DNA from: an uncultured Acidobacteriota bacterium
GTDB taxonomy: Bacteria; Acidobacteriota; Thermoanaerobaculia; UBA5066; Gp7-AA6
Assembly (NCBI GenBank): GCA_963764715.1
Contig: CAVXTP010000014.1
Span: 64,001-128,000 of the forward strand
Direction: 5' to 3'
Length of the DNA stretch: 64,000 nt
Shown here: positions 24,791 through 38,919 of the stretch, piece by piece
Layout of the letters: every line of letters starts with the position of its first letter
Position numbering within the stretch: the stretch's first letter is position 1
The notes under the pieces: model-generated
What the model was told of the DNA's origin: nothing
The model's database searches: none
What the model saw: the letters and a program-made list of their open reading frames with translations, nothing else
Program-made: the position numbers and the translations under genes

Positions 24791-24846
24791 CCGCGGCCCC
24801 GGCGTCTTTTTCCATCGGTTCTCCGCCCGAGGGCGACTTCGCGAAT

Positions 24847-24862
24847 TGATGCAGCTGCATCA
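24847..24862. promoter_or_regulatory. Perfect palindrome TGATGCAGCTGCATCA upstream of the hydrogenase operon (putative transcription-factor site)
   Basis: 16-bp palindrome; -10-like TATGTT at 24887; a related site lies at 37634. Confidence 0.65.
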
Positions 24863-25064
24863 TGGCCCCTCGCCACGCACGGACCCTATGTTGAACGGAA
24901 CTCGGAGGGCTCGTGCATCGAGACCTTGTGCTTCCGCAGCCGCCTCCCACGCTGCAACCGCGGACCGCACCCGAGCCCTCCTCATCTCTTCATGCTCCGC
25001 GCCCCTTCGCCGGCCCGGAAGGAGCGCTTTCGTAATCCGGCGCCGCCGGAAGGAGGCATCGCCC

Positions 25065-26216
25065 ATGCCGCAGTCCACGCGTTGGTTTCTGGATGAGCTC
25101 GATCGCCGGGGAGTCTCGCGCCGGGACTTCATGTCGTTCTGCGGCGTGATGGCCGCGGCGCTGGCCCTGCCCAGGAGCGCCGCCGCCACCATTGCCGCCG
25201 CGATCCAGAAGACCCAGAAGCCGGTCCTCGTCTGGCTCGAGTTCCAGGATTGCTGCGGCAACACGGAGTCATTCCTGCGGGCGGGACGCCCGACCGTCGC
25301 CGAGATCGTCCTCGACACCCTCTCGGTCGACTACCACGAGACGATCATGGCCGCCGCCGGCGACCGCGCCGAGGCCAACCTCGCGAAGGCCGTCAAGGAC
25401 AACAAGGGCAAGTACATCGCGGTCGTCGAAGGCTCGATCCCGACCGGGATCGACGGCGCCTACTGCACGATCGGCGGGCGGGCGGCCCTCGACATCGCCC
25501 GCGAGGTCTGCGGCGACGCCCTGGCGACGATCGCGATGGGGACCTGCGCCACGTTCGGAGGGCTTCCGGCCGCCGCGCCGAACCCCACGGGCGCGCTCGG
25601 CGTCGCCGACGCCGTCCCGGGGGTCAAGAACCTCATCAACCTCTCGGCCTGCCCCGCCAACGTCGAGAACCTGACGGCCCTGATCGTCTACTACCTGACG
25701 TTCAAGGCGCTTCCGCCGACCGACTCGTACCACCGCCCGCTCTTCGCCTACGGCAAGGCCATCCACGACAACTGCGAGCGCCGCGCCCACTACGACGCCG
25801 GCCAGTACGTCGAGGCCTGGGGCGACGACGGGCACCGCACCGGATACTGCCTCTACAAGATGGGGTGCAAGGGCCCCGTCACCTTCCAGAACTGTCCCAA
25901 CGTCCGCTGGAACAGCGGGACCAACTGGCCGATCGGCTGCGGCCACCCGTGCATCGGCTGCGCCGAGCCCGATTTCTGGGACAAGATGACTCCCTTCTAC
26001 CGCCACCTCGAGGGCATCCCGGGCTTCGGCGTCCAGTCCAGCATCGACAAGGTGGGCGTCTGGTCCACGGTCGGCGTCGGCGCCGCCTTCGCCACCCACG
26101 GACTCATCTCGCTCGCCAAGCGCTGGAAGGCGGGCTCGCCGCCGCGCAACCTTCCCGAGCCTCCGGAGAAGCCGGCCGCGAACAAACCGCCCGCGGAGAA
26201 AGGAGAGCGGTCATGA
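25065..26216 (+). CDS. hyaA: [NiFe]-hydrogenase small subunit, group 1, Tat-exported with C-terminal membrane anchor
   Basis: SRRDFMSFC Tat motif, QDCCGNTES, GTCA, ACP, IHDNCERR, CLYKMGCKGP, GHPCIGC; GGAGG SD. Confidence 0.96.
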   Translation: MPQSTRWFLDELDRRGVSRRDFMSFCGVMAAALALPRSAAATIAAAIQKTQKPVLVWLEFQDCCGNTESFLRAGRPTVAEIVLDTLSVDYHETIMAAAGDRAEANLAKAVKDNKGKYIAVVEGSIPTGIDGAYCTIGGRAALDIAREVCGDALATIAMGTCATFGGLPAAAPNPTGALGVADAVPGVKNLINLSACPANVENLTALIVYYLTFKALPPTDSYHRPLFAYGKAIHDNCERRAHYDAGQYVEAWGDDGHRTGYCLYKMGCKGPVTFQNCPNVRWNSGTNWPIGCGHPCIGCAEPDFWDKMTPFYRHLEGIPGFGVQSSIDKVGVWSTVGVGAAFATHGLISLAKRWKAGSPPRNLPEPPEKPAANKPPAEKGERS

Positions 26217-27919
26217 CGCATGTCGTCGTCGATCCCGTGACCCGCATCGAAGGCCACCTCCGGATCGAGGCCGAAGTCGACGGTGGAAAAGTCCAGGACG
26301 CCTGGTCCTCCGCCACGATGTTCCGCGGCGTGGAGCTGATCCTGAAGGGCCGCGATCCGCGCGACGCCTGGGCCTTCACGCAGCGGATCTGCGGCGTGTG
26401 CACGACGGTGCACGCGATCGCCTCGATCCGCGCCGTCGAGAACGCGATCGGCGCAACGCCGCCGCCCAACGCCCGCCTCCTGCGCAACCTGATCATCTCC
26501 TCGCAGTGCGTGCAGGACCACGTCATCCACTTCTACCACCTGCACGCGCTCGACTGGGTCGACATCGTCTCGGCGCTCTCGGCGGACCCGGCGAAGACCT
26601 CCGCCCTCGCGCAGTCGATCTCGGACTGGCCGCTCTCGAGCACGACCTACTTCGCCGGGATCCAGGGCCGCGTGAAGGCGTTCGTCGAGCGCGGGCAGCT
26701 CGGGCCCTTCGCCAACGCCTACTGGGGCCACCCGGCCTACAAGCTGCCGCCGGAGGCAAACCTGATGGCGGTCGCCCACTACCTCGAGGCGCTCGACTGG
26801 CAGCGCGAGTTCATCCGGATCCACGCGATCCTGGGCGGAAAGAACCCGCACCTCCAGAGCTTCCTCGTCGGAGGCATGGCGACGCCCATCGACCCGGACC
26901 GGCAGGCGTCGTTGAACGCCGGATCGATCGCCGAAATGCAGGAGCTCATCCAGAAGGGCCGCGACTTCGTCACGCGCGTCTACATTCCGGACCTCCTGGC
27001 GATCGCGTCCTTCTACAAGGACTGGGCCGGGTACGGCGCCGGGGTCGGAAACTACCTGGTCTACGGCGAGTACCCCGAGGACGACGGGCCGAACCCGCGG
27101 CTCTTCCTGCCCTCCGGCGTCATCCGAAAGCGCGACCTCTCGAAGGTCGACAAGTTCGATCCCGCGAAGATCACCGAGCAGGTCAAGCACTCCTGGTACG
27201 AATACGACGGCGGGGACGACAAGGGCCTTCACCCGTTCCAGGGCGAGACGAAGCCGAAGTACACCGGCCCGAAGCCGCCGTACGAGCGGCTCGCGACCGA
27301 CGCCAAGTACAGCTGGCTGAAGTCCCCGCGCTACGACGGCGAGCCCATGGAGGTCGGTCCCCTCTCCCGGATGCTCGTCGCGTACGCGTCGGGCCAGCCG
27401 CGCGTCAAGGAGCTCGTCGGAGCGGTCCTCGGGAAGCTCAACGTGGGTCCCGAGGCCCTCTTCTCGACGCTCGGCCGCGTCGCCGCCCGGGGCATCGAAA
27501 CCCAGGTCCTCGCCGAGAAGATGGACGAGTGGGTCAACGCACTGGCCGCGAACATGGCGCGCCGCGAGCTCCGCATCGCCGACAACTCGAAGTGGGAGCC
27601 CTCGACCTGGCCGAAGGAGGCCTCGGGCGCCGGCTTCCACGAGGCGCCCCGCGGCGCGCTCGGCCACTGGGTCCACATCCGCGACGGCCAGATCGCCAAC
27701 TACCAGTGCGTCGTGCCGAGCACGTGGAACGCCGGGCCGCGCGACGCCGAGGGCAACCGCGGCCCCTACGAGGAAGCGCTTCGCGGCACCCCGGTCCACG
27801 ACCCGGCCCAGCCGATCGAGATCCTGCGCACCGTGCACTCGTTCGACCCCTGCATCGCCTGCGGCGTCCACGTCGTCGACGTCGAGCGGCGCGAGCTCGC
27901 GCACGTGAGGGTCCTGTGA
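26213..27919 (+). CDS. hyaB: [NiFe]-hydrogenase large subunit, group 1
   Basis: DPVTRIEGH, L1 QRICGVCTTVH, L2 SFDPCIACGVH plus a cleavable tail; ATGA overlap. Confidence 0.98.
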   Translation: MTHVVVDPVTRIEGHLRIEAEVDGGKVQDAWSSATMFRGVELILKGRDPRDAWAFTQRICGVCTTVHAIASIRAVENAIGATPPPNARLLRNLIISSQCVQDHVIHFYHLHALDWVDIVSALSADPAKTSALAQSISDWPLSSTTYFAGIQGRVKAFVERGQLGPFANAYWGHPAYKLPPEANLMAVAHYLEALDWQREFIRIHAILGGKNPHLQSFLVGGMATPIDPDRQASLNAGSIAEMQELIQKGRDFVTRVYIPDLLAIASFYKDWAGYGAGVGNYLVYGEYPEDDGPNPRLFLPSGVIRKRDLSKVDKFDPAKITEQVKHSWYEYDGGDDKGLHPFQGETKPKYTGPKPPYERLATDAKYSWLKSPRYDGEPMEVGPLSRMLVAYASGQPRVKELVGAVLGKLNVGPEALFSTLGRVAARGIETQVLAEKMDEWVNALAANMARRELRIADNSKWEPSTWPKEASGAGFHEAPRGALGHWVHIRDGQIANYQCVVPSTWNAGPRDAEGNRGPYEEALRGTPVHDPAQPIEILRTVHSFDPCIACGVHVVDVERRELAHVRVL

Positions 27920-28677
27920 GCACCGCGCGGCCGCTCGTCGATCCCGGCTCGATCCCGCCTCCCGCCGACACGGACCTCGTCCGCGTCTACGTCTGGGAGT
28001 GGCCCGTGCGCCTGGCGCACTGGCTGATCGTCATCTCGCTCGTCGTGCTCTCCTGGACCGGCCTCTACATCGGCCGTCCGTTTCTGATCTCGCCCGGCGA
28101 GGCCCGCTTCGAGTTCGTGATGGGCACGGCGAAGACCATCCACTTCTACGCGGCGATCGTCTTCACGATGGCCGTCCTCGTGCGGGTCATCTGGATGTTC
28201 ACCGGAAACCGGTTCTCGCACTGGGACAAGTTCCTTCCGGTCGCCAAGCGCCGCCGGCAGGCGATGATCCCGACGCTCAAGTACTACCTCTTCGCGCTGC
28301 GCAAGCCGCCGGGCTTCATCGGCCACAATCCCCTGGCCGGGCTCACCTACACCCTGGTGTTCGTCCTCTACTTCACGATGATCGCCACGGGGATCGCGCT
28401 CCGCACGGTGGGCGCGGACGTGCACTCGCCCCTCCGGATCTTCTCCTTTCTCGTGCCCCTCTTCGGCGGCCCGCAGTCGGCGCGCTGGATTCACCACGTC
28501 GGCATGTGGCTCCTCTGGGGCTTCGCCGTGCACCACGTCTACAGCGCCATCCTGATGTCGCAGGTCGAGGGCAACGCCACGATCGAATCGATCTTCTCGG
28601 GCTACAAGTTCGTTCACCGCGACGACGTCTACTACTCGGGCTACCGCTTCCTCGCCCGGAAGGACGAGCATGGCTGA
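27916..28677 (+). CDS. hyaC: Hydrogenase b-type cytochrome subunit
   Basis: YVWEWPVRLAHW, GHNPLA, IHH...VHHVY, IFSGYK; GTGA overlap. Confidence 0.95.
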   Translation: MSTARPLVDPGSIPPPADTDLVRVYVWEWPVRLAHWLIVISLVVLSWTGLYIGRPFLISPGEARFEFVMGTAKTIHFYAAIVFTMAVLVRVIWMFTGNRFSHWDKFLPVAKRRRQAMIPTLKYYLFALRKPPGFIGHNPLAGLTYTLVFVLYFTMIATGIALRTVGADVHSPLRIFSFLVPLFGGPQSARWIHHVGMWLLWGFAVHHVYSAILMSQVEGNATIESIFSGYKFVHRDDVYYSGYRFLARKDEHG

Positions 28678-29215
28678 GCCGGGCCGCCTGCTCGTCCTCG
28701 GGCTCGGCAACCTGCTCTGCGGCGACGACGGCCTCGGCGCGGCCGCCGTCGCCCGGCTCGACCGCGACTGGGAGGCGCCCGACGAGGCGCTCGTCCTCGA
28801 CGGCGGAACGCTCGGTCTCTCGCTCCTGCCGTACCTCGAGGACGCCGAGGACGCCATCCTCGTCGACGCCATCCGCGACGACGCGCCGGCCGGCGCGCTC
28901 GTGCGCCTGACGGGTGAAAACGTCGCGCCCGCGGTGCTCCATCGCCTCTCGCCCCACCAGGTCGGGGTCGCCGACCTGCTCGACGGAGCGCGGCTCCACG
29001 ACCGGTATCCGCGCCGCCTCGTGCTCCTCGGGCTCGTGCCCCTGACGCTGGGGCTCGGCGTCGAGCGCTCGGCCGGGGTCGAGGCCCGGATCCCCGACCT
29101 CGTCGAGGCGGTCGTCGAGGAGGCTCGCCGCATGGGCCACACCTTCGTGCGCAGGACGGACGATGAAAAAGTCTCTCGTTGTCGCGGCGATGTGGCTCGC
29201 GTTTTCGGCCTGTAG
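28670..29215 (+). CDS. hyaD: Hydrogenase maturation endopeptidase
   Basis: LGLGNLLCGDDGLG, LDGGT, VDA, SPHQ. Confidence 0.95.
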   Translation: MAEPGRLLVLGLGNLLCGDDGLGAAAVARLDRDWEAPDEALVLDGGTLGLSLLPYLEDAEDAILVDAIRDDAPAGALVRLTGENVAPAVLHRLSPHQVGVADLLDGARLHDRYPRRLVLLGLVPLTLGLGVERSAGVEARIPDLVEAVVEEARRMGHTFVRRTDDEKVSRCRGDVARVFGL

Positions 29216-29561
29216 GGGCGGGGACGGCCGCCTGCCGGAGCCGTACCGGAGCCTGGCCGTGCCCGAGGAGCGGCTGCGCTCGGCCGAGGCGCGGGCGCAC
29301 GGCCGCGCGCTCTATCTGCAGAACTGCGCCCTCTGTCACGGCGAGCGCGCCGACGGCCGCGGCGTCCGGCAGCAGGCCCTGAGCACTCCCCCGCGCGACT
29401 TCACCGATCCGGCCTGGCGCAGGCGCACTTCTCCGCGCCAGGTGTTCCACGTCATCCGCGAGGGCTCCCCCGGCACGCCGATGCCGGCCTGGAAGGCCCT
29501 CGACGAAAACGACGCGTGGGACCTGACCGCCTACCTGCTCGCCGTCGGAGAGAGGCCGTGA
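29163..29561 (+). CDS. Monoheme c-type cytochrome lipoprotein
   Basis: Lipobox FSAC, CALCHG, GTPMPAW distal Met. Confidence 0.88.
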   Translation: MKKSLVVAAMWLAFSACRGGDGRLPEPYRSLAVPEERLRSAEARAHGRALYLQNCALCHGERADGRGVRQQALSTPPRDFTDPAWRRRTSPRQVFHVIREGSPGTPMPAWKALDENDAWDLTAYLLAVGERP

Positions 29562-31849
29562 GCGCGCAGGGACGGCGCATCGAGGTCCGCGGGATCGTGC
29601 AGGGCGTCGGGTTCCGGCCCTGGGTCTACCGCCTCGCCCGCGAGGAGGGCATCGGCGGGCGGGTCTCCAACGGAACGGAAGGAGTCACGATCGAAGCCTT
29701 CGGCCTCGACGCGGCGCTCGATGCGTTCCTCGACCGGCTGCGCTCGAGCCCGCCGCCCGCGGCCCGCATCCGGGAGCTCGAGTGGACGCCGATCCCCGCG
29801 GAGCTCGCGAGGGAGTTCGTCATCGTCGAGAGCCGCGCCGGGGGAACCCGCCGCGTCTCGATCCCGGCCGACCTCGCCACCTGCCCGGATTGCCTGCGCG
29901 AGGTCTTCGATCCGGAGAACCGCCGCTACCGCTACCCGTTCACCAACTGCACCAACTGCGGCCCCCGCTTCACGATCGCCCGCGGCGTGCCGTACGACCG
30001 GCCGGCGACCACGATGGCGTCCTTTCGCATGTGCGCGGACTGCCAGCGCGAGTACGACTCGCCGCTCGACCGCCGTTTCCACGCCCAGCCCAACGCCTGT
30101 CCCGCCTGCGGCCCGCGCCTCTTCGCCGTGGATGCCCGCGCCCGAATTCTCGACGCGGCCGACCCGATCCGCGCCGCCGTGCAGGTCCTCCGGGACGGCG
30201 GCATCCTCGCCCTCAAGGGCATCGGCGGCTTCCACCTCGCCTGCGACGCCACCGCGCCGCCGGCCGTCGCCCTGCTGCGCCGCCGGAAGCGGCGCGACGA
30301 GAAGCCCTTCGCCGTCATGGTCGGCGATCTCGAAGCGGCCGAAGAGGTCGCCGTCCTCTCCGGGGCGGACCGGACGCTCCTCACCGCGATCGAGAGGCCG
30401 ATCGTTCTCGTTCCGCGCCGCGGCCGAAGCCGCCTCGCACCCGAGATCGCGCCCCGCAATCCGCTCGTCGGTCTTCTCCTCCCCTACTCGCCGCTCCATC
30501 ACCTGCTCCTCGCCGACGCCGGGCGGCCCCTCGTCATGACCTCCGGCAACCTCTCGGAGGAGCCGATCGCGTACGAAGACCGCGACGCCCTCGCGCGGCT
30601 CGCGGGCATCGCCGACCTCTTCCTGGTGCACGACCGGGAGATCGAGTCGCGCTCGGACGACTCGGTGGCGCGCGTCGTCGCGGGCCGCCCCGTCGTCTTC
30701 CGGCGGTCCCGCGGCTACGTACCGCGCGGCGTGCCCGTGCGGCGGCCGTTCGAGCGTCCCGTGCTCGCCTGCGGGGGCCACCTGAAGAACACGTTCTGCA
30801 TCGGCCTCGGCGACACGGCGTGGCTCGGCCCGCACATCGGAGACCTCGACGGCCTCGACACCGTCCGCGCCTTCGAAGAGGCGATCGAGCGCGCCGAGCG
30901 CTTCCTCGGGGTCCGTCCCGAGGTGGTCGCGCACGACCTTCATCCCCTCTACGCGTCGACGCGCTACGCGCTGGAGCGGCCGGAGGCGCAGAAGGTCGCG
31001 GTCCAGCATCACCACGCCCACGTGGCGAGCGCCATGGCCGAGCACGGGCTCGAAGGCCCGGTCCTCGGCGTCGCCTTCGACGGCACCGGATACGGAACCG
31101 ACGGCACCGCCTGGGGCGGCGAGCTGCTGCTCGCGTCCGCCGACCGGTTCGAACGCGCGGGCACGCTCCGGCCGATCGCGCTGCCCGGCGCCGACCAGGC
31201 GATCCGCGAGGTCTGGCGGATCGCGGCGGCGCTGCTGTGCGACGCGTTCGGCGACGATCCGCCCTTCGACGCCTTCCCCGTCTTTTCGGAGGTCCCGGCC
31301 CGCCGCCTCGAGCTCGTCCGCCAGATGGCCCTCCGGGGCATCCAGGCGCCGCTCGCCCGCGGCGTCGGCCGGTACTTCGACGCGCTGGGCTCCCTCTTTC
31401 TCTCCCGGCCCGTCTCCCGCTTCGAAGGCCAGGTCGCACAGGAGTGGAACTTCGCCGCCGACGTGCGCGAGCGCGGCGCCTATCCCTTCGAGATCGCCGC
31501 GGACCATGGCCTGCGGACGCTCGACCTGCGGCCGCTCGTGCGGGCCGCGGCGGCCGACTTCCAGGGCGGGGCGTCCCCCTCCGAAATCTCGGGCCGCTTT
31601 CACAACACGCTCGCCGGAGCGACGGCGGCGATGGTCCGGGCCGCGGCCGAAACGGCCGGCGCGCTTCCGGTCGTGCTGACGGGAGGATGCTTCCAGAACG
31701 CCCTCCTGACCGAGCGCGTCCTCGCCGCGCTGACGCCCGAGTTCCGGGTCTTCCTCCACGGCGAAGTGCCGCCCGGCGACGGCGGCCTCGCCCTCGGCCA
31801 GGCGCTCGTCGCCGGCGCGGTCGCACGCTCGAGCGAAGGAGGTTTCTGA
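29558..31849 (+). CDS. hypF: Carbamoyltransferase HypF
   Basis: GIVQGVGFRP, zinc fingers (CPDC/CTNC/CADC/CPAC), KGIGGFHL, QHHHAH, PPGDGG. Confidence 0.97.
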   Translation: MSAQGRRIEVRGIVQGVGFRPWVYRLAREEGIGGRVSNGTEGVTIEAFGLDAALDAFLDRLRSSPPPAARIRELEWTPIPAELAREFVIVESRAGGTRRVSIPADLATCPDCLREVFDPENRRYRYPFTNCTNCGPRFTIARGVPYDRPATTMASFRMCADCQREYDSPLDRRFHAQPNACPACGPRLFAVDARARILDAADPIRAAVQVLRDGGILALKGIGGFHLACDATAPPAVALLRRRKRRDEKPFAVMVGDLEAAEEVAVLSGADRTLLTAIERPIVLVPRRGRSRLAPEIAPRNPLVGLLLPYSPLHHLLLADAGRPLVMTSGNLSEEPIAYEDRDALARLAGIADLFLVHDREIESRSDDSVARVVAGRPVVFRRSRGYVPRGVPVRRPFERPVLACGGHLKNTFCIGLGDTAWLGPHIGDLDGLDTVRAFEEAIERAERFLGVRPEVVAHDLHPLYASTRYALERPEAQKVAVQHHHAHVASAMAEHGLEGPVLGVAFDGTGYGTDGTAWGGELLLASADRFERAGTLRPIALPGADQAIREVWRIAAALLCDAFGDDPPFDAFPVFSEVPARRLELVRQMALRGIQAPLARGVGRYFDALGSLFLSRPVSRFEGQVAQEWNFAADVRERGAYPFEIAADHGLRTLDLRPLVRAAAADFQGGASPSEISGRFHNTLAGATAAMVRAAAETAGALPVVLTGGCFQNALLTERVLAALTPEFRVFLHGEVPPGDGGLALGQALVAGAVARSSEGGF

Positions 31850-32139
31850 TGTGCCTCGGAGTTCCGGGCCGCGTGCTCGCCGTCGAGGGCCTGACGGCCA
31901 CCGTCGACTTCTGGGGGATCCGGCGCCAGGTGCGCCTCGACGTCGTCGACCAGGCGGTCGAACCGGGCGACTACATCCTCAACCACGTCGGCTTCGCGAT
32001 CCGCCGCATCCCGGCCGAGGAGATCGGCGAGACGCTCGCCCTCTACGAGACCCTCCTCGCCGAGGCGCGCAAGGACGACCTCATGGCCGCCGACGTCCGG
32101 GGCGAGATGAGCGGCACCGCGCCGGAGGAACCGCGATGA
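31849..32139 (+). CDS. hypC: Hydrogenase chaperone HypC
   Basis: MCLGVPG...GDYILNHVGFAI; TGATG overlap; GGAGG SD. Confidence 0.96.
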   Translation: MCLGVPGRVLAVEGLTATVDFWGIRRQVRLDVVDQAVEPGDYILNHVGFAIRRIPAEEIGETLALYETLLAEARKDDLMAADVRGEMSGTAPEEPR

Positions 32140-33281
32140 TTCTGCGGGAGCTTTCGGCCGCGGCCCGCGAGGTCAAGTTCCGCGACCCGCAGCTGGCGCG
32201 GCGGCTCTCCGCGCAGATCGCCCGTCACACCGCCGAGATCGGGCGTTCCCCCGTCTCGGTGATGCACGTCTGCGGCAGCCACGAGCAGGCGATCGCGAAG
32301 TGGGGCCTGCGGGCGACCTTCCCGAAGGACCTCAACGTCATCATGGGGCCCGGCTGTCCCGTCTGCATCACCGACATGCCCGAGGTCGACGAGGGCGTGG
32401 CGCTCGCCCGGCAGGGCGTCGTCATCGCCACCTACGGCGACATGGTCAAGGTCCCCGGGACGGTCCAGTCCCTCGCGGACGCCCAGGCCGCGGGCGCCGA
32501 GGTGCGCGTCGTCTACAGCGCGGAGCAGGCGGTCGCCCTCGCCCGCGAGACCTCGAAGGAGGTCGTCTTCTTCGCGACCGGCTTCGAGACGACGGCCGTC
32601 GCGACCGCGGCGATCGTGCGGGGACCGCTGCCGCCGAACTTCTCCGTGCTCTCCGCCCACAAGTACATCCCCCCGGTGATGGAGATCGTCGCCGAAATGC
32701 CCGAGACGCGTGTCGAGGGGTTCCTCGCGGCCGGGCACGCCGCCGCCATCACCGGCTGGGGAATCTTCGAGGCCTTCGTCGAGCGCCACGGGATCCCGGT
32801 CGTCGTCGCGGGCTTCGAGCCGCTCGACATCCTCGCCGGCCTCGCGCGCCTGGTGGAGCTGATCCGCGACCGGACGCCGCGGGTCGTCAACATGTTCCCG
32901 CGCTGCGTCACCCGCGCCGGGAACCTGCGCGCGCAGGAAGAGCTCTGGAGCGTGTTCCGTCCCGTCGGCGGGCGCTGGCGGGGCATCGCCCACGTCCCGA
33001 ACGGAAACCTCCGGCTGCGCGACGAATGGGCCCGCGTCGACGCGCGCCGGCGTTTCGCGATCGACCTGACCGGGCTCTGGGACTACGCGCCGCCGACCCT
33101 GGCGGCGAGCTGCATCTGCGGGGACATCATGTCCGGCATCGCGTCCCCGAAGGACTGCTCCCTCTTCGGCCGCGAGTGCGTGCCGGACACGCCCGTCGGC
33201 GCGTGCATGGTCTCGAGCGAAGGGACCTGCAAGATCTGGCACCAGTACGGCGGGATTCCCAACCTCGGAGAAGCGCTGTGA
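32136..33281 (+). CDS. hypD: Hydrogenase maturation protein HypD
   Basis: MHVCGSHE, GPGCPVC, GFETT, CICG...C...C...PVGACMVSSEGTC. Confidence 0.97.
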   Translation: MILRELSAAAREVKFRDPQLARRLSAQIARHTAEIGRSPVSVMHVCGSHEQAIAKWGLRATFPKDLNVIMGPGCPVCITDMPEVDEGVALARQGVVIATYGDMVKVPGTVQSLADAQAAGAEVRVVYSAEQAVALARETSKEVVFFATGFETTAVATAAIVRGPLPPNFSVLSAHKYIPPVMEIVAEMPETRVEGFLAAGHAAAITGWGIFEAFVERHGIPVVVAGFEPLDILAGLARLVELIRDRTPRVVNMFPRCVTRAGNLRAQEELWSVFRPVGGRWRGIAHVPNGNLRLRDEWARVDARRRFAIDLTGLWDYAPPTLAASCICGDIMSGIASPKDCSLFGRECVPDTPVGACMVSSEGTCKIWHQYGGIPNLGEAL

Positions 33282-34322
33282 AGATGCTGACGATTCTCGA
33301 AGAGCGGGTGACCCTCAAGCAGGGGGCGGGGGGCCGCGCCATGCGGTCCCTGATCGAGGACGTGTTCCTGAAGGAAATGCCGGCGCCGCCCGACGCTCTC
33401 AAGGGGATCGGCGCCGAGGCGATGGACGACGGCGCGGCGCTCTGGCTCGGAGACCGATACCTCGTCGTCACGACCGACTCGCATGTCGTCCATCCCATTT
33501 TCTTCCCCGGAGGCGACATCGGGCGGCTCTCGGTCTCCGGCACCGTCAACGACCTCGCCATGATGGGCGCGACCGAGGTGCTGGCCCTGACCTGCGCCGC
33601 CGTCATCGAGGAGGGCTTCCCGCGCGCCGAGCTCGAGCGCATCCAGGACTCGATCCGCGCGACCTGCCTCGAGGCGGGCGCCGCGATCGTCACGGGCGAC
33701 ACGAAGGTGATGGGCCGCGGCGAGATCGACGGGATCGTGCTCAACACCACGGGCCTCGGCCTGACCGACCGCGTCGTCCCGGACTCGGGGCTCTCGCCCG
33801 GGCGACCGGATCCTCGTCACGGGCACCGTGGGCGACCACGGCCTGGCCATCATGGCCGCCCGCCACGCCCTGGAGCTCGAAGGCGCGCTCGCGTCCGACG
33901 TCGCGCCGATCAACGGGCTCATCCGCGCGGCGCTGTCCGCCGCGGACGGCGCGATCGTCGCCATGAAGGACCCCACGCGCGGAGGGCTCTCCTCCGCCCT
34001 CCACGAGATGGCGGAGAAGAGCCGCGTCGGCATCCTCCTCGAGGAGCCCTCCGTCCCGGTCACCTCCGCCGTCCGCGCCGCGGGCGATCTCCTCGGGATC
34101 GATCCGCTCCACGTCGCCAACGAGGGCAAGGCCGTCCTCGGCGTGCGTCCGGAAATGGCCGAGCGCGTGCTCGCCGCGCTCCGCGCGCATCCCCTCGGGA
34201 GGGACGCCGCCATCGTCGGCACCTGCATCGCCGAGCGCCCCGGCTCGGTCATCCTGGATACGGGCTTCGGGCGGCGGCTCCTCGCCGAGCCCGAGGGCGA
34301 GCCCCTCCCCCGCATATGCTGA
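33278..34322 (+). CDS. hypE: HypE carbamoyl dehydratase with a +1 frameshift near 33800 (probably a sequencing error)
   Basis: TTDSHVV, GTVNDLA and TGDTKV in one frame; DPTRGG, ANEGK and terminal PRIC in another; CCCGGGCGAC where CCCGGCGAC would restore the frame. Confidence 0.93.
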
Positions 34323-35065
34323 CGCCCCGCGTCCGCGTCGCCGTCCTCTGCTCCCGGCGCTGCCCGGGGCTCGAGAATCTCCTCGAGGGCCACCGCCGAC
34401 GCGAGTGGGACCTCGTCGGCTGCCTCGTTTCCGGCGACGAGCTTGCGGAGCGGCGGGAGCTCGAGGCCGCGCGCGTCCCCGTGCGGTGGCACTCGATCCG
34501 CGCCTTCTACGCCGGCCGGCCGCTCTCCGACCTCGCGCGGCGGCGCGAATACGACCGTGGAATCGTCGAGCGCCTCGACGCCTGGCGGCCGGAACTCGTG
34601 CTCCTCTCGAGCTATCTCTATCGGTTGACGGAGCCGATGCTCGAGGCCTTCCCCGGCCGGATCGTCAACGTCCACGGCAGCGACCTCGCGCTCACGGGAC
34701 GCGACGGGCGCCCGGTCTACCCGGGGTTGACGGCCGTGCGCGACGCGATCCGGGCGGGCGAGCCCGAGACGCGGGCGACCGCCCACGTCGTCACCGAACG
34801 CCTGGACGAGGGCCCGATCCTCCTTCGTTCGCGGCCCTTCCCGGTCGCGCCGCTCGTCGCGGACCTGCGGCGGCGCGGGCTCGCCCACGCCGTCAACGCC
34901 TACGCCTTCGCGCACCAGGAGTGGATGCTCGCGACCGCCTGGGGACCTCTGCTGACGGACGCGATCGCGTTGATGACGGGGCGGGTCGAGCGCGGCCGCG
35001 CCCGGTTCGAGATCGGACCGGCGGACCGTCGCGCGCCGGCCGCCGCCGCGGGGGCCCCGCGATGA
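34316..35065 (+). CDS. PurN-like formyltransferase in the hyp operon (candidate HypX N-module analogue)
   Basis: PELVLLSSY, IVNVHGS (N-x-H) and RLDEGP formyltransferase motifs; overlaps the hypE stop; 249 aa. Confidence 0.85.
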   Translation: MLTPRVRVAVLCSRRCPGLENLLEGHRRREWDLVGCLVSGDELAERRELEAARVPVRWHSIRAFYAGRPLSDLARRREYDRGIVERLDAWRPELVLLSSYLYRLTEPMLEAFPGRIVNVHGSDLALTGRDGRPVYPGLTAVRDAIRAGEPETRATAHVVTERLDEGPILLRSRPFPVAPLVADLRRRGLAHAVNAYAFAHQEWMLATAWGPLLTDAIALMTGRVERGRARFEIGPADRRAPAAAAGAPR

Positions 35066-35895
35066 CGCACATCCGGGTGGACCGCGACGGCGCCGTCGCC
35101 TTCCTGACCATCGACCGGCCCGAGCGGTTCAACTCGCTCGACGTCGAGACGGCGCGTGACTTTCGCAAGGCCGGCCTCGCGCTCGCCCGGGACCCGGCCG
35201 TCCGGGCGGTCGTCCTCTCCGGCATCCCGGGCGCCTTCTGCAGCGGCGCGGACCTGAAGTACATCCGGTCGGGCGGAAAGCGGGAGGACCTCGGCTACCT
35301 GCAAGGCGCGCGGCCGGAGCAGACCGGCTACGGAGAGATCTTCAAGCAGATCCTGGAGTACATCCACAGCACGATCTCCGAGATCAAGCGCGCGCCCAAG
35401 CCCTTCGTCGCGGCGGTGGACGGGGTCGCCGCGGCCGGCGGCTTCGGGATCGCCATGGCCTGTGACCTCGTCTACGCCTCCGACCGGTCGACCTTCGAGT
35501 GGGCGTACGGAAAGACCGGGCTGACGGGAGCGGAGAGCTCGACCTTCTTCCTGCCGCGGCTCCTGGGTCTTCGCCGCGCGATGGAGCTCGTGCTTCTCAA
35601 CCCGCGCCTCGACGCCGCGCGGGCCCTCGAGTACGGACTGATCAATGGCGTTTTCCCGGCCGTGACCTTCGACGCCGAAGTCCGCGCGATCGCCCGGCGC
35701 CTCGCCGAGGGCCCCACCGAGGCGCTCGGCATCGCCAAGAGCCTGGTCCAGCAGGCGGCCGGAGTGGACCGCCTCGATCACCACCTCGACCGCGAGCTCG
35801 AGCAGCTCGCGCGGATCGCCGACGGGGCGGATTTCGCGGAGGGCCTCGAGGGCTTCTTCGCCCGCCGGCCCGCGCGCTTCGGCGGCGGGGGCTGA
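35062..35895 (+). CDS. Enoyl-CoA hydratase/isomerase-fold protein in the hyp operon (candidate HypX C-module analogue)
   Basis: DRPERFNSL, FCSGADL, AVDGVAAAGG, ACD, AYGKTGLTGAESSTFFLPR; ATGA overlap; 277 aa. Confidence 0.9.
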   Translation: MTHIRVDRDGAVAFLTIDRPERFNSLDVETARDFRKAGLALARDPAVRAVVLSGIPGAFCSGADLKYIRSGGKREDLGYLQGARPEQTGYGEIFKQILEYIHSTISEIKRAPKPFVAAVDGVAAAGGFGIAMACDLVYASDRSTFEWAYGKTGLTGAESSTFFLPRLLGLRRAMELVLLNPRLDAARALEYGLINGVFPAVTFDAEVRAIARRLAEGPTEALGIAKSLVQQAAGVDRLDHHLDRELEQLARIADGADFAEGLEGFFARRPARFGGGG

Positions 35896-35900
35896 GCCGC

Positions 35901-36248
35901 GTGCACGAGTACTCGATCGTCCAGGCGCTCGTCGAGCGGGTCGAGGCCGAGGCCGCTCAGCGGGGCGCGGCGTCCGTCCACCGCCTCCACGTCCGGATCG
36001 GCGAGGCGTCGGGCGTCGAGATCGATCTGCTCAAGACGGCCTACGGCGTCTTTCGCGAGCGCACGATCTGCGAGACGGCGGATCTCTCGATCGTCCCGGT
36101 CCCCGCGCGATGGGAGTGCCCCCGCTGCCACGGAGACATCCCGCGGGGATCGATTCTTCGCTGCGCGGAGTGCGCGGTCCCCGCTCGCCTCGCGGCCGGA
36201 GACGAGATCTTCCTGGACCGAATCGAGATGGAGGTGGCGAGTGTGTGA
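35901..36248 (+). CDS. hypA: Nickel metallochaperone HypA
   Basis: (M)HEYSI, CPRC...CAEC, GDEIFL. Confidence 0.95.
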   Translation: MHEYSIVQALVERVEAEAAQRGAASVHRLHVRIGEASGVEIDLLKTAYGVFRERTICETADLSIVPVPARWECPRCHGDIPRGSILRCAECAVPARLAAGDEIFLDRIEMEVASV

Positions 36249-36960
36249 GACCCGCGACCGCGGCGACCTCGAGTCCGTACCCGTCGAAGTGCGCGATCGG
36301 ATCCTCTCCGGCAACGACCGGACCGCCCGCCACAACCGCGAGCACTTCGCCTCGCGGGGGCTGCTGGCGATCAACCTGATGGGCTCGCCCGGCGCAGGGA
36401 AGACCGCCGTCCTCGAAGCCACCGCCCGGGCCGTGCAGGGGCGCCTGCGGCTCGGCGCGCTCGCCGGCGATCTCGAGACCGACCGCGACGCGCAGCGGCT
36501 GCTGCGGGCCGGCATCCCCTCGGTCGCGATCACCACGGGCTCGGCCTGCCACCTCGACGCCGAGCTCGTCCACCGCGCACTGCACGGTTTCCCCGTCGAC
36601 GACCTCGACATGCTCTTCATCGAGAACGTCGGCAACCTGGTCTGCCCCGCCGTTTACGACCTCGGGCAGGCCGCCAGCGTCGTCGCGCTGTCGGTGACCG
36701 AGGGCGAGGACAAGCCCGTGAAGTATCCGGTCATGTTCCGCAAGGCCGACCTCGTCCTGGTCACGAAGACGGACCTGCTGCCGCACCTGCCCGAGGTGAG
36801 CCTCGCGGCGATCGAGGACGCGCTGTCGCGCGTCATGCCCTCGCCCCGCCTCATCCCGTTCTCGGCGCGGACGGGCGCCGGCGTCGACGCCTGGCTCGAC
36901 TGGCTGGAGGAACGGCGCCTGAACGCCGTCCTCGCGCTCGAATCCCGGGTGCGGGCGTGA
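36241..36960 (+). CDS. hypB: Nickel insertion GTPase HypB
   Basis: GSPGAGKT, ACHLDA, ENVGNLVCP, EGEDKP.KYP. Confidence 0.96.
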   Translation: MCETRDRGDLESVPVEVRDRILSGNDRTARHNREHFASRGLLAINLMGSPGAGKTAVLEATARAVQGRLRLGALAGDLETDRDAQRLLRAGIPSVAITTGSACHLDAELVHRALHGFPVDDLDMLFIENVGNLVCPAVYDLGQAASVVALSVTEGEDKPVKYPVMFRKADLVLVTKTDLLPHLPEVSLAAIEDALSRVMPSPRLIPFSARTGAGVDAWLDWLEERRLNAVLALESRVRA

Positions 36961-37604
36961 ACGGCCTGTTCGCGGCCCTGGCCCTCGGAGCCCTGACGGT
37001 CGGAAGCCTGCATACGCTGGCGCCGGACCACTGGGTCCCGTTCGCGGCGCTGGCGCGCGCGCGCGGCTGGTCGGCGGGACGGACGCTGCGCGTGACGCTC
37101 GCCTGCGGCTTCGGCCACGTCACGGTGTCGGCCCTGCTCGGCGGGCTGGGCCTTCTCTTCGGCATGGGGATCATCGAGCGCTTCGGCCGGCGGATGGAGG
37201 CTGCCGCGGGCGTGCTCCTGGTGGGATTCGGCGTGGCGTACGCGATCTGGGGGCTTCGCCGGGCGGCCGGGCGAAAGCTCCACGGCCATTCCCATGCCCA
37301 CTACGACCACATCCACGACTCGGGCGGCATGACGGCCTGGACGCTCTTCGTTCTCTTCTCCGCCGATCCGTGCGTGGCGGTGATCCCCCTCCTCTTCGCG
37401 GCGGCGCCCCTGGGGGCGGCCGCGGCGGCCGGCATCGTCCTCGTCTACGAGATCTCGACCCTCGCGACCATGGTCGCCCTGGTCCTGCCGGCGCGGGCCG
37501 GCGCCTCCAGGCTGCGCGCCCCGTGGCTCGACCGTTACGGGGACGCCGTGGCGGGCGCCCTGATCGCGGCCATCGGTCTCGCCGTCGGGGCCCTCGGCAT
37601 CTGA
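36957..37604 (+). CDS. Putative nickel/cobalt transporter (NiCoT/UreH/RcnA-like)
   Basis: LHTLAPDHW, GHV, His-rich loop HGHSHAHYDHIH, 6 TM segments; last gene of the hyp operon. Confidence 0.8.
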   Translation: MNGLFAALALGALTVGSLHTLAPDHWVPFAALARARGWSAGRTLRVTLACGFGHVTVSALLGGLGLLFGMGIIERFGRRMEAAAGVLLVGFGVAYAIWGLRRAAGRKLHGHSHAHYDHIHDSGGMTAWTLFVLFSADPCVAVIPLLFAAAPLGAAAAAGIVLVYEISTLATMVALVLPARAGASRLRAPWLDRYGDAVAGALIAAIGLAVGALGI

Positions 37605-37649: not shown

Positions 37650-37703
37650 TGCGCGCGCCCGGCGCGCCTGTCTACCCTCGAGTTGAACGCACGGAGGTGG
37701 GTG

Positions 37704-38258
37704 ATGACACTTCTGAATCTCTTTCTGATCGTCCTGGCCGTCTCCCTGATTCCGGTGATTTTCGTCTCCGTCCGCGCCTACCGGCGTTACCGGGGCGCAC
37801 GGGTGGTCACCTGTCCCGAGACGAAGCAGACGGTCGCCGTGACGATCGACCGGGGCCATGCCGCGGCCACGACCCTCGCCGGCGAGCCGGAGCTGCGCCT
37901 CGAATCCTGCACGCGCTGGCCCGAACGGCAGCACTGCAACCAGGCGTGCATCTCCCAGATCGAGAGCTCGCCCGACGGCTGCCTCGTGCGCAACATCCTC
38001 ACCCACTGGTACGAGGGAGCCTCCTGCGCCCTCTGCGGAAACAAGATCGAGATTCACTGGGGCGACAACAGGCCGGCGATCCTGGGTCCGGACAACAAGT
38101 CGCTCGAATGGGACGAGATCCGGCCCGAAAAGCTGCCGGAGATCCTGGCGACGCACAAGCGGGTCTGCTGGAGCTGCCACGTCGCGAACACGTTTCACGA
38201 CCAGTACCCGGACCTGGTGACCGAGCGCAAGGCCGCGCCCGAGCGCCGCGTCTCCTAG
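37704..38258 (+). CDS. Membrane-anchored Cys-rich hypothetical protein
   Basis: N-terminal TM followed by RAYRRYR; 9 Cys: CPE, CTRWP...CNQAC, GC, CALC, CWSCH; GGAGG SD. Confidence 0.85.
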   Translation: MTLLNLFLIVLAVSLIPVIFVSVRAYRRYRGARVVTCPETKQTVAVTIDRGHAAATTLAGEPELRLESCTRWPERQHCNQACISQIESSPDGCLVRNILTHWYEGASCALCGNKIEIHWGDNRPAILGPDNKSLEWDEIRPEKLPEILATHKRVCWSCHVANTFHDQYPDLVTERKAAPERRVS

Positions 38259-38385: not shown

Positions 38386-38919
38386 ATGAAGATCAGGCCA
38401 TCGACTCCGACGGGAGGCTCGGCCCTCCGGCTGGGGACGCTGTTCGCAATCGCTCTGGCCGGTGCTCCGGGGGCGACCCTCGCTCGGGGTGCCCCGTCCG
38501 AGCAAGGAGAGGGTGGCCGGCCCTCCGACCCGTGGCAGGTCAGTCAGATCGTGAAACCGGAAGACCTCGCCGCGTCCCTGTCGAAGGCGGCGGCCGACAA
38601 GCCTTTGCTGCTCTACGTCGGGCCCCGGTTCCCCTACCTGGGCGGTCACATCGCGGGGTCGATCTTCGCCGGACCCGCGTCGAAAACCGAGGGTCTCGAG
38701 GCGCTGAAGGCGGAGGTGAAGAGTCTCCCCCGGGACAAGCCGATCGTCATCTATTGCGGCTGCTGTCCCTGGAAGGTTTGTCCCAACATCCGCCCGGCCT
38801 TTCGCGCCCTGCAGGACATGGAGTTCAGGAACGTCCGGGTCCTGTATCTGCCGACGAATCTGCGGCAGGACTGGATCGACAAGGGATGGCCGACTCAGAA
38901 GGGAGACGATGCCCGATGA
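38386..38919 (+). CDS. Exported rhodanese-like domain protein
   Basis: GHIAGS, IVIYCGCCPW..CPNIRPA, W..KGWP. Confidence 0.85.
   Translation: MKIRPSTPTGGSALRLGTLFAIALAGAPGATLARGAPSEQGEGGRPSDPWQVSQIVKPEDLAASLSKAAADKPLLLYVGPRFPYLGGHIAGSIFAGPASKTEGLEALKAEVKSLPRDKPIVIYCGCCPWKVCPNIRPAFRALQDMEFRNVRVLYLPTNLRQDWIDKGWPTQKGDDAR

Follow-up and report, generated by a model that had tools for sequence, protein, structure and literature searches.

Where the CO ligand of [NiFe] hydrogenases comes from is settled only for organisms that contain HypX. HypX (HoxX), known from C. necator and R. leguminosarum and from the A. aeolicus structure 6J0P, joins a formyl-tetrahydrofolate-type transferase and a crotonase in one polypeptide. 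A 2025 review of [NiFe] cofactor biosynthesis (PMC12134894) presents it as a single two-domain protein and, in the part of its text that was available, mentions no split or stand-alone form. Catalytic residues of its transferase part are His74, Asp80 and Asp109. According to the available sections of the HypX paper (PMC6802093), the N-terminal domain belongs to the Fmt/FDH/ArnA type and includes an OB-fold subdomain B, and Tyr416 and Glu426 of the A. aeolicus protein (Tyr439 and Glu449 in R. eutropha) are needed for decarbonylation. In the same sections, formation of formyl-coenzyme A (formyl-CoA) is explained by reference to 10-formyl-tetrahydrofolate dehydrogenase (FDH), whose hydrolase domain is a precedent for transfer of a formyl group from N10-formyl-tetrahydrofolate to a phosphopantetheine thiol. 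The present analysis concerned a stretch of 64,000 nucleotides (the window; positions 64,001 to 128,000 of contig CAVXTP010000014.1, assembly GCA_963764715.1) from an uncultured soil Acidobacteriota bacterium. In this window, a hydrogenase maturation (hyp) operon contains, between hypE and hypA, separate genes for a formyltransferase of 249 amino acids (FT, P0001) and a crotonase-fold protein of 277 amino acids (P0002; its gene is abbreviated ECH below). It is judged an even chance that the two proteins constitute a non-orthologous, two-protein analogue of HypX that would make CO via formyl-CoA. In a literature search, outside of which lay subscription papers and supplements, neither a split or two-gene HypX nor a hyp-linked stand-alone crotonase was found described, and in PMC2974642 crotonases appear solely as the outgroup of a HypX tree.

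The two-gene split is genuine. A first-pass annotation of the DNA had described two coupled genes between hypE and hypA, and this description was borne out by the sequence, by Pfam matches and by third-position GC contents of 0.91-0.95 in exactly the FT and ECH frames (window GC, 71%). The ATGA overlap of the two genes suggests translational coupling. A frame-shifting indel at about position 35060, which that annotation had considered as a cause of an artificial split, was not found: the junction was bridged by public short-read contigs from three runs, two of them gap-free and one with an in-frame 3-base deletion, and none carried a frame-changing indel. In all 27 clean related pairs, which represented 26 distinct contigs since L062 and L091 are the same contig, FT and ECH were in different frames, with a 4-nucleotide overlap in 19 pairs and gaps of 2-29 nucleotides in the other eight. 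Thirty-four loci had entered this frame check; five with indel-rich assemblies that fragmented the matches (L039, L048, L053, L061 and L063) were dropped, and L087 and L088, which have no transferase, were left out. A search among longer proteins (18 matches, six of them close) yielded no true fusion. The six close matches (P0127-P0132) were rejected as FT-ECH fusions, their open reading frames being over-extended into an upstream wrong frame or frameshift-ridden and derived from high-GC or indel-rich assemblies. As the annotation had stated, the window contained no fused hypX, and with C. necator HypX (from pHG1) as query no fused homologue was detected elsewhere in the 96.8%-complete genome either. 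Only four weak matches were returned at E ≤ 1, the best of which for the crotonase domain was P0002 (2.6e-7).

Genome scans, which were confined to Acidobacteriota, and metagenome scans, whose loci carry no taxonomy, linked both genes to hyp clusters, a test suggested in the first-pass annotation. A scan with the FT alignment (one genome per species) identified 30 loci, all reading hypC-hypD-hypE-FT-ECH, in Acidobacteriota metagenome-assembled genomes labelled Thermoanaerobaculia, Vicinamibacteria or unclassified; these overlap an earlier set of nine (same contigs, e.g. L037 = L020 and L049 = L021). In a sample of 401 Acidobacteriota genomes (crotonase threshold E ≤ 1e-60), HypD was present in 189, the crotonase in 11 (this genome included) and true HypX in only two, at 53-56% identity to C. 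necator HypX and E around 1e-176. This tally includes the unpublished genome G064, which has a HypD match and neither crotonase nor HypX; it counts once among the 401 and once among the 189, and no other result depends on it. No genome of the sample had both the crotonase and HypX, in agreement with the mutual exclusion that the annotation had proposed to test. In all ten other crotonase genomes, the crotonase gene was located inside a hyp operon, adjoining hypE or hypD, and in eight of them FT was directly upstream of it. Four of these genomes, all from one family, showed the order hypD-FT-ECH-hypE, which indicates that the FT-ECH pair moved as a unit. In the crotonase genomes, the hyp genes belong to a lineage of their own, in which HypD is at least 66% identical, versus at most 48% for the rest. 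The slot directly after hypE, taken here by the FT-ECH pair, is occupied by hypX in C. necator pHG1 and in G280, an acidobacterium that has HypX.

Scanning metagenomes with the crotonase alignment returned at least 584 relatives, of which the best 80, and hence not an unbiased sample, were analysed. At least one hyp gene was present in 76 of these 80 loci. FT preceded ECH in 33, while in 38 the crotonase gene started at most 200 nucleotides after hypE and left no room for FT; the others had larger gaps (three loci), no hyp gene (one) or too little upstream sequence (five). The crotonase is therefore the core, constant component, and FT an add-on in about half of the operons. One public contig that matches the window joins hypE directly to the crotonase gene, skipping FT. 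Genome G096 also has the order hypE-ECH and, on another contig (L089, 9573-13245), encodes a 39%-identical FT paralogue directly after a HypC paralogue. This FT paralogue is without residues of the formyl-transfer site (Asn118 to Ala, Asp164 to Gly) and is followed by genes for a radical SAM protein and a nitroreductase-like protein; the cluster may be a second, different maturation module. At E ≤ 1e-40, the crotonase matched nothing in a plasmid collection. One 65%-identical crotonase orthologue (P0127) combined a very acidic composition and a lower GC content with a halophile-like look, and one FT relative was labelled Gemmatimonadota; the crotonase family may reach beyond Acidobacteriota.

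The crotonase was predicted to have a standard crotonase fold (mean predicted local distance difference test score, pLDDT, 83.9), with Foldseek template-modelling scores of up to 0.84 to solved crotonases. Its closest named relatives, at approximately 30-40% identity, are PaaG (1,2-epoxyphenylacetyl-CoA isomerase; TIGR02280; PDB 4fzw_C and 6sla) and PaaG-like crotonases. It differs from these enzymes in several respects. All its NCBIfam matches were below cut-off (PaaG, 160.1 bits versus 345.15), it carries a conserved insert of approximately 14 residues at positions 70-90, and its gene is flanked by hyp genes, with no paa genes nearby. When 1.84 billion representatives were searched, orthologues of the crotonase formed a compact group (at least 57% identity), separated by a gap from generic crotonases at approximately 40%, and in a 45-row tree the family formed one clade among PaaG-like crotonases (Shimodaira-Hasegawa-like approximate likelihood-ratio test, SH-aLRT, 90). 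A protein atlas returned generic crotonase clusters only, and public annotations name the protein a PaaG-type isomerase or an enoyl-CoA hydratase.

Similarity of the crotonase to HypX (28% identity over 205 amino acids, pairwise E = 4e-10) included the region of the active-site residues. The motifs quoted in the first-pass annotation, AAAGG (123-127) and AYGKTGLTGAESSTFFLPR (148-166), are present, and E146, W147, Y149, G156, A157 and E158 were invariant in 20 relatives. Both BLASTP and MAFFT aligned Y149 and E158, with one gap between them, to HypX Tyr439 and Glu449, whose positions were confirmed in the C. necator sequence. Residues were compared in 126 sequences, consisting of 12 members of the hyp-linked crotonase family, three HypX C-domains and 111 related crotonases. 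Position 149 was Tyr in all 12 family members and all three C-domains, and positions 156-158 read G-A-E in the former and G-S-E in the latter. Among the related crotonases, Tyr occurred at 149 in 80, Asp at 157 in 99 and Glu at 158 in seven, six of which were fragments or close kin of the crotonase family. The G-A-E of the family stands where PaaG-like relatives have P-D-G, and Ala157 aligned with the Asp of the P-D motif in E. coli PaaG, which we take to be catalytic in view of the title of PDB entry 6sla ('D136N'). In these alignments, loss of the PaaG Asp and gain of an adjacent Glu are a specific change that is common to the crotonase family and HypX. The claim that the crotonase lacks both hydratase glutamates and the PaaG P-D motif held for the first glutamate (Tyr at 149) and for the PaaG Asp (Ala at 157). 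It could not be verified for the second glutamate, since Glu175, at what we take to be the corresponding position, was retained in 11 of the 12 family members and in most related crotonases.

FT contained the Formyl_trans_N domain only and was modelled as a single domain with one long helix. The classification as PurN-like and unlike the HypX N-domain, already made in the first-pass annotation, was upheld by NCBIfam (PurN, TIGR00639, 66.8 bits versus a cut-off of 150.1; PurU, 44; Fmt, 30.6), by a PDB sequence search (best solved relative PurN 3auf, 8.6e-18), by Foldseek (all top matches PurN) and by a tree that separated the FT family, as a clade with support of 99, from PurN, from Fmt and from the HypX N-domain (likewise 99). 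The annotated motifs NVH (118-120), LDEGP (163-167) and AHQEWM (199-204) are all present, and residues invariant in 16 relatives include N118, H120, S122, D123 and D164. Asn118, His120 and Asp164 aligned with PurN, in which Asn-x-His and Asp belong to the formyl-transfer site, and Asp123 follows three residues after the His. No alignment of FT with HypX could be obtained for HypX His74, Asp80 and Asp109; FT His120 and Asp164 occupy PurN-aligned positions. FT differs from PurN (PDB 3auf, 1cde) by an 8-residue insert after the His motif, by an additional conserved C-terminal helix (AYAFAHQEWMLxTAWGPLL) that is followed by a variable tail, and by an N-terminal loop, SRRxPGL, at the position of a PurN loop that binds the substrate phosphate. 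Its family was encoded only in hyp operons at the 30 loci. Beside purM, the genome encodes a true PurN (236.6 bits versus the cut-off of 150.1), and it has a true Fmt as well, so that FT is not the housekeeping enzyme. Public annotations label FT as PurN or formyltransferase family protein. By these comparisons, FT is PurN-like but not PurN, and is of the PurN type rather than the Fmt/FDH type of the HypX N-domain. FDH, which is Fmt-type with an OB subdomain, was absent among the 23 PDB sequence matches of FT, and a PDB search with HypX matched Fmt and FDH but no PurN chain.

A pathway can be proposed in which the pair would supply the CO ligand of the NiFe(CN)2CO cofactor while the uptake hydrogenase is made in air. 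FT would transfer the formyl group of N10-formyl-tetrahydrofolate to the thiol of CoA, yielding formyl-CoA. The crotonase, a candidate formyl-CoA decarbonylase, would then hold formyl-CoA in its oxyanion hole and release CO and CoA by means of Tyr149 and Glu158, the presumed counterparts of the essential Tyr and Glu of HypX. The CO would be delivered to the iron held on HypC-HypD, and the [NiFe] hydrogenase encoded in the window would be the enzyme that receives the cofactor. Binding to HypCD has been shown for HypX. In operons without FT, formyl-CoA would need another source. The genome encodes a haem-copper oxidase subunit I (495 bits), which indicates that the cell can respire oxygen, and an oxygen-compatible route to CO would therefore make sense. 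The locus shares with HypX systems the combination of a formyl-tetrahydrofolate-type transferase and a crotonase, the place directly after hypE, Tyr and Glu at aligned crotonase positions within a G-[AS]-E motif, accessory occurrence in a minority of hyp-bearing genomes and a host able to respire oxygen. It differs in that two polypeptides replace one, that FT has no OB subdomain, that about half of the operons lack FT and that no covalent link creates an internal CoA cavity common to both parts, as HypX has according to the available part of PMC6802093. Similarity at the level of a protein family was not found: the crotonase is only 28% identical to its HypX counterpart, and the transferase shows no similarity.

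Several observations weigh against this pathway, the strongest being that FT is optional and shows no link to CoA, that the Tyr is ancestral, that its distance from the Glu is one residue shorter than in HypX and that HypX relies on a CoA cavity shared by its domains. FT was missing from 38 of the 75 assessable metagenome loci and from G236, a 99%-complete genome with the order hypE-ECH in which the best match to the FT family (4.4e-9) was at the level of PurN. The crotonase must therefore work without FT, and since FT is optional, transfer of formyl-CoA between two proteins, as put forward in the first-pass annotation, cannot be the whole story. No obvious formyl-CoA-making gene was found beside the crotonase gene in FT-less loci, whose neighbours encoded a NicO-type nickel transporter, multihaem cytochromes, a nitroreductase-like protein, a short-chain dehydrogenase and a protein of 174 amino acids; none of these emerged as a candidate replacement for FT. 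Between FT and HypX, BLASTP detected no similarity (best E = 1.3). In HypX, an internal cavity extending across both domains keeps CoA bound (PMC6802093, available part); two separate proteins would need either a complex or free formyl-CoA. A 1:1 complex prediction for FT and the crotonase with CoA scored 0.00 versus a mark of 0.32, without controls, and speaks neither for nor against binding. In the crotonase model, the active-site loop 150-160 had a mean pLDDT of 54, so that the geometry of the Tyr/Glu dyad is not readable from it, and the Tyr-to-Glu spacing is nine residues, versus ten in HypX. Tyr149 is shared with 80 of the 111 related crotonases and, judged from these alignments, is inherited from PaaG-like ancestors. 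Of the HypX-like Tyr/Glu pair that the annotation had recognized by eye, the alignment was thus confirmed and the Tyr proved not to be special, leaving only the change of Asp157 to Ala together with Glu158 as specific. HypX was not among the 23 PDB matches of FT or the 60 PDB matches of the crotonase that were listed. For either model, 6J0P was also absent from the Foldseek ranks listed (to 49), which adds little because every crotonase or PurN structure outranks HypX. Judged from their sequences and folds, the two proteins resemble ordinary PurN and PaaG-like enzymes. Of the 189 HypD-bearing genomes, 176 had neither the crotonase system nor HypX, and in three genomes of the same HypD lineage the module was absent, with hypE directly adjoining its next neighbour (hypA in two of them). 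The module is accessory, which fits HypX but equally a dispensable side function.

Much of this evidence is also compatible with a different role in maturation, in which the crotonase catalyses another CoA-thioester reaction (for instance, decarboxylation or hydrolysis of another small acyl-CoA, or formation of a different C1 precursor), FT formylates a non-CoA acceptor and the likeness to HypX lies in the parts rather than in the chemistry. Linkage to hyp genes supports that role as strongly as it supports CO formation. The dispensability of FT in 38 of 75 loci, the ancestral Tyr and the position of the crotonase family as its own clade within ordinary crotonases all agree with it, and in G096 the altered FT paralogue, whose gene adjoins that of a HypC paralogue, gives a hint of functions different from formyl transfer. 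Against such a role stand the switch from P-D-G to G-A-E, which converges on the G-S-E of HypX that bears the essential Glu, and the match to HypX in both domain pair and operon slot. In addition, no further maturation step is known to need an acyl-CoA, as far as the available part of PMC12134894 extends. A reaction other than CO release is considered possible but doubtful. That the pair merely travels with the hyp operon and serves ordinary metabolism, as an additional PurN and an isomerase or hydratase of the PaaG-like kind, would agree with their public annotations and standard folds, and is nevertheless highly improbable. Both proteins scored far below the curated PurN and PaaG cut-offs, the PaaG Asp is replaced, a true PurN is encoded elsewhere in the genome, the start/stop overlaps with hypE and between the pair are conserved, and the hyp linkage outlasts operon rearrangements and is present in 76 of 80 independently found loci.

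Descent from HypX, either as an ancestral unfused form or by secondary splitting of a fused hypX, has to be weighed separately for the two proteins. For the crotonase, a tree that joined the family with the HypX C-domains was not rejected and was 5.98 log-likelihood units better than the free search (approximately unbiased test, p-AU 0.63), although the group tested was named after the tree had been seen. The HypX C-domain, moreover, sat on a very long branch that joined an unresolved node, which makes its placement unreliable. Members of the crotonase family took ranks 1, 2, 4, 6 and 8 among 123 phmmer matches of the C. necator HypX C-domain, and were enriched but interleaved among the best matches of the HypX C-domains; the G-[AS]-E motif is likewise found in both. 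For FT, descent from HypX is not supported by the sequence comparisons. Its scores place it with PurN/PurU, it has no second subdomain, and its family and the HypX N-domain form separate clades with support of 99 each, whereas the HypX N-domain is of the Fmt/FDH type and carries an OB subdomain (PMC6802093, available part), and HypX matched no PurN chain in the PDB. The pair is therefore not a simple split of HypX, and the absence of true fusions among longer proteins also argues against such an origin, which for the pair as a whole is regarded as quite unlikely. Of the split, ancestral-like or convergent origins offered in the first-pass annotation, the observation of two separate, unfused genes stands, and the split or ancestral form fails for FT, a PurN-type protein without OB subdomain or HypX similarity. 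The trees suggested in that annotation thus set FT apart from the HypX N-domain and allowed a grouping of the crotonase with the HypX C-domain.

If the pair is indeed a second, independently assembled system in the same operon slot as HypX, the formyl-CoA route to CO would have been invented or re-assembled more than once. It would then also offer a natural experiment, with the two half-reactions residing in two proteins that could be purified and mutated separately, and the crotonase-only operons would open a way to find out from which other sources in the cell formyl-CoA for the CO ligand is drawn. A broader scenario would make the hyp-linked crotonase a stand-alone formyl-CoA decarbonylase of wide occurrence and the source lineage of the HypX C-domain. 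Formyltransferases would then have been recruited twice independently, as a separate PurN-type gene and as an Fmt-type domain fused in HypX, and crotonase-only operons would draw on a formyl-CoA source not yet tied to hydrogenase maturation. This scenario is thought rather unlikely; if true, it would bear directly on the source of the CO ligand outside HypX organisms, such as those in the Acidobacteriota sample, where HypD was found in 189 of 401 genomes and HypX in only two. The results also correct the labels PurN or PaaG that several hundred genes from metagenomes and genomes currently carry.

Table 1. Genes of the hydrogenase and maturation operon in the window and the overlap of the FT and ECH genes. 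Positions refer to the window.
Feature	Position	Strand	Evidence and remarks
[NiFe] hydrogenase small subunit	24846-26216	+	Pfam; longest open reading frame, true start probably later
[NiFe] hydrogenase large subunit	26213-27919	+	Pfam; small and large subunits span 24846..27919
Cytochrome b	27931-28677	+	matches Ni_hydr_CYTB
Hydrogenase maturation protease	28670-29215	+	
c-type cytochrome	29163-29561	+	Cytochrome_CBB3 domain
hypF	29516..31849	+	five HypF domains in Pfam
hypC	31849..32139	+	Pfam PF01455; begins MCLGVPG
hypD	32136..33281	+	Pfam PF01924, 1.5e-122
hypE	33278..34322	+	stop 34320-34322 overlaps FT start (ATG 34316-34318; ATGCTGA); frame broken by one extra base at approximately 33796
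Formyltransferase FT (P0001, 249 amino acids)	34316..35065	+	Pfam PF00551 Formyl_trans_N, 1.5e-20, 74.2 bits versus gathering threshold 26.1
Crotonase-fold protein ECH (P0002, 277 amino acids)	35062..35895	+	Pfam PF00378 ECH_1, 8.6e-47, 160 bits versus gathering threshold 27
Start/stop overlap of FT and ECH	35062..35065	+	sequence (ATGA); ECH ATG at 35062, FT stop 35063-35065
hypA	35901..36248	+	NCBIfam TIGR00100, 1e-23, 83.6 bits versus cut-off 88.1
hypB	36241..36960	+	Pfam cobW/HypB/UreG, 4.6e-17
His-rich membrane protein	36957-37604	+	215 amino acids
Cys-rich protein	37683-38258	+	191 amino acids

According to Pfam, NCBIfam and translation, the plus strand of the window carries a complete uptake-hydrogenase and maturation operon (Table 1). 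The best solved relative of the large subunit was the membrane-bound hydrogenase of A. vinosum (3myr, 5.9e-225). A search for RNA runs that contain positions 33600-35300 of the window listed none, and in no run did the share of the sampled words exceed 0.21. The extra base in hypE is located in the run CTCTCGCCCGGG (33790-33800). Three close relatives did not have it, nor did contigs from four public runs (soil or biofilm), of which two were nearly identical to the window at this position, and the frameshift is probably an assembly error. Elsewhere in the same genome, the COX1 gene was split into two adjacent matches. The c-type cytochrome gene between the hydrogenase protease gene and hypF was kept in relatives; since a cytochrome b is encoded there already, it is an unusual member of such a group 1 hydrogenase operon.

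In two FT-less loci (L150, 1887-2411, and L152, 3355-3879), the open reading frame for the 174-amino-acid protein is situated between hypE and the crotonase gene and overlaps the crotonase start; its product matched no Pfam family and showed no similarity to FT. The 215-amino-acid His-rich membrane protein encoded downstream of hypB in the window (loop HGHSHAHYDHIHD) had no Pfam or NCBIfam match. Its gene was kept after hypB, or directly after the crotonase gene, in many related loci, and an open reading frame at the equivalent position in L109 matched the NicO nickel transporter family; the protein is likely a nickel importer. The 191-amino-acid Cys-rich protein, for which no family match was found, has one N-terminal membrane helix and CxxC-like pairs. 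Most close relatives encode it at 40-86% identity, likewise downstream of the operon. A gene for a rhodanese-like protein (38386-38919), also downstream of the operon, was kept in the closest relatives only.

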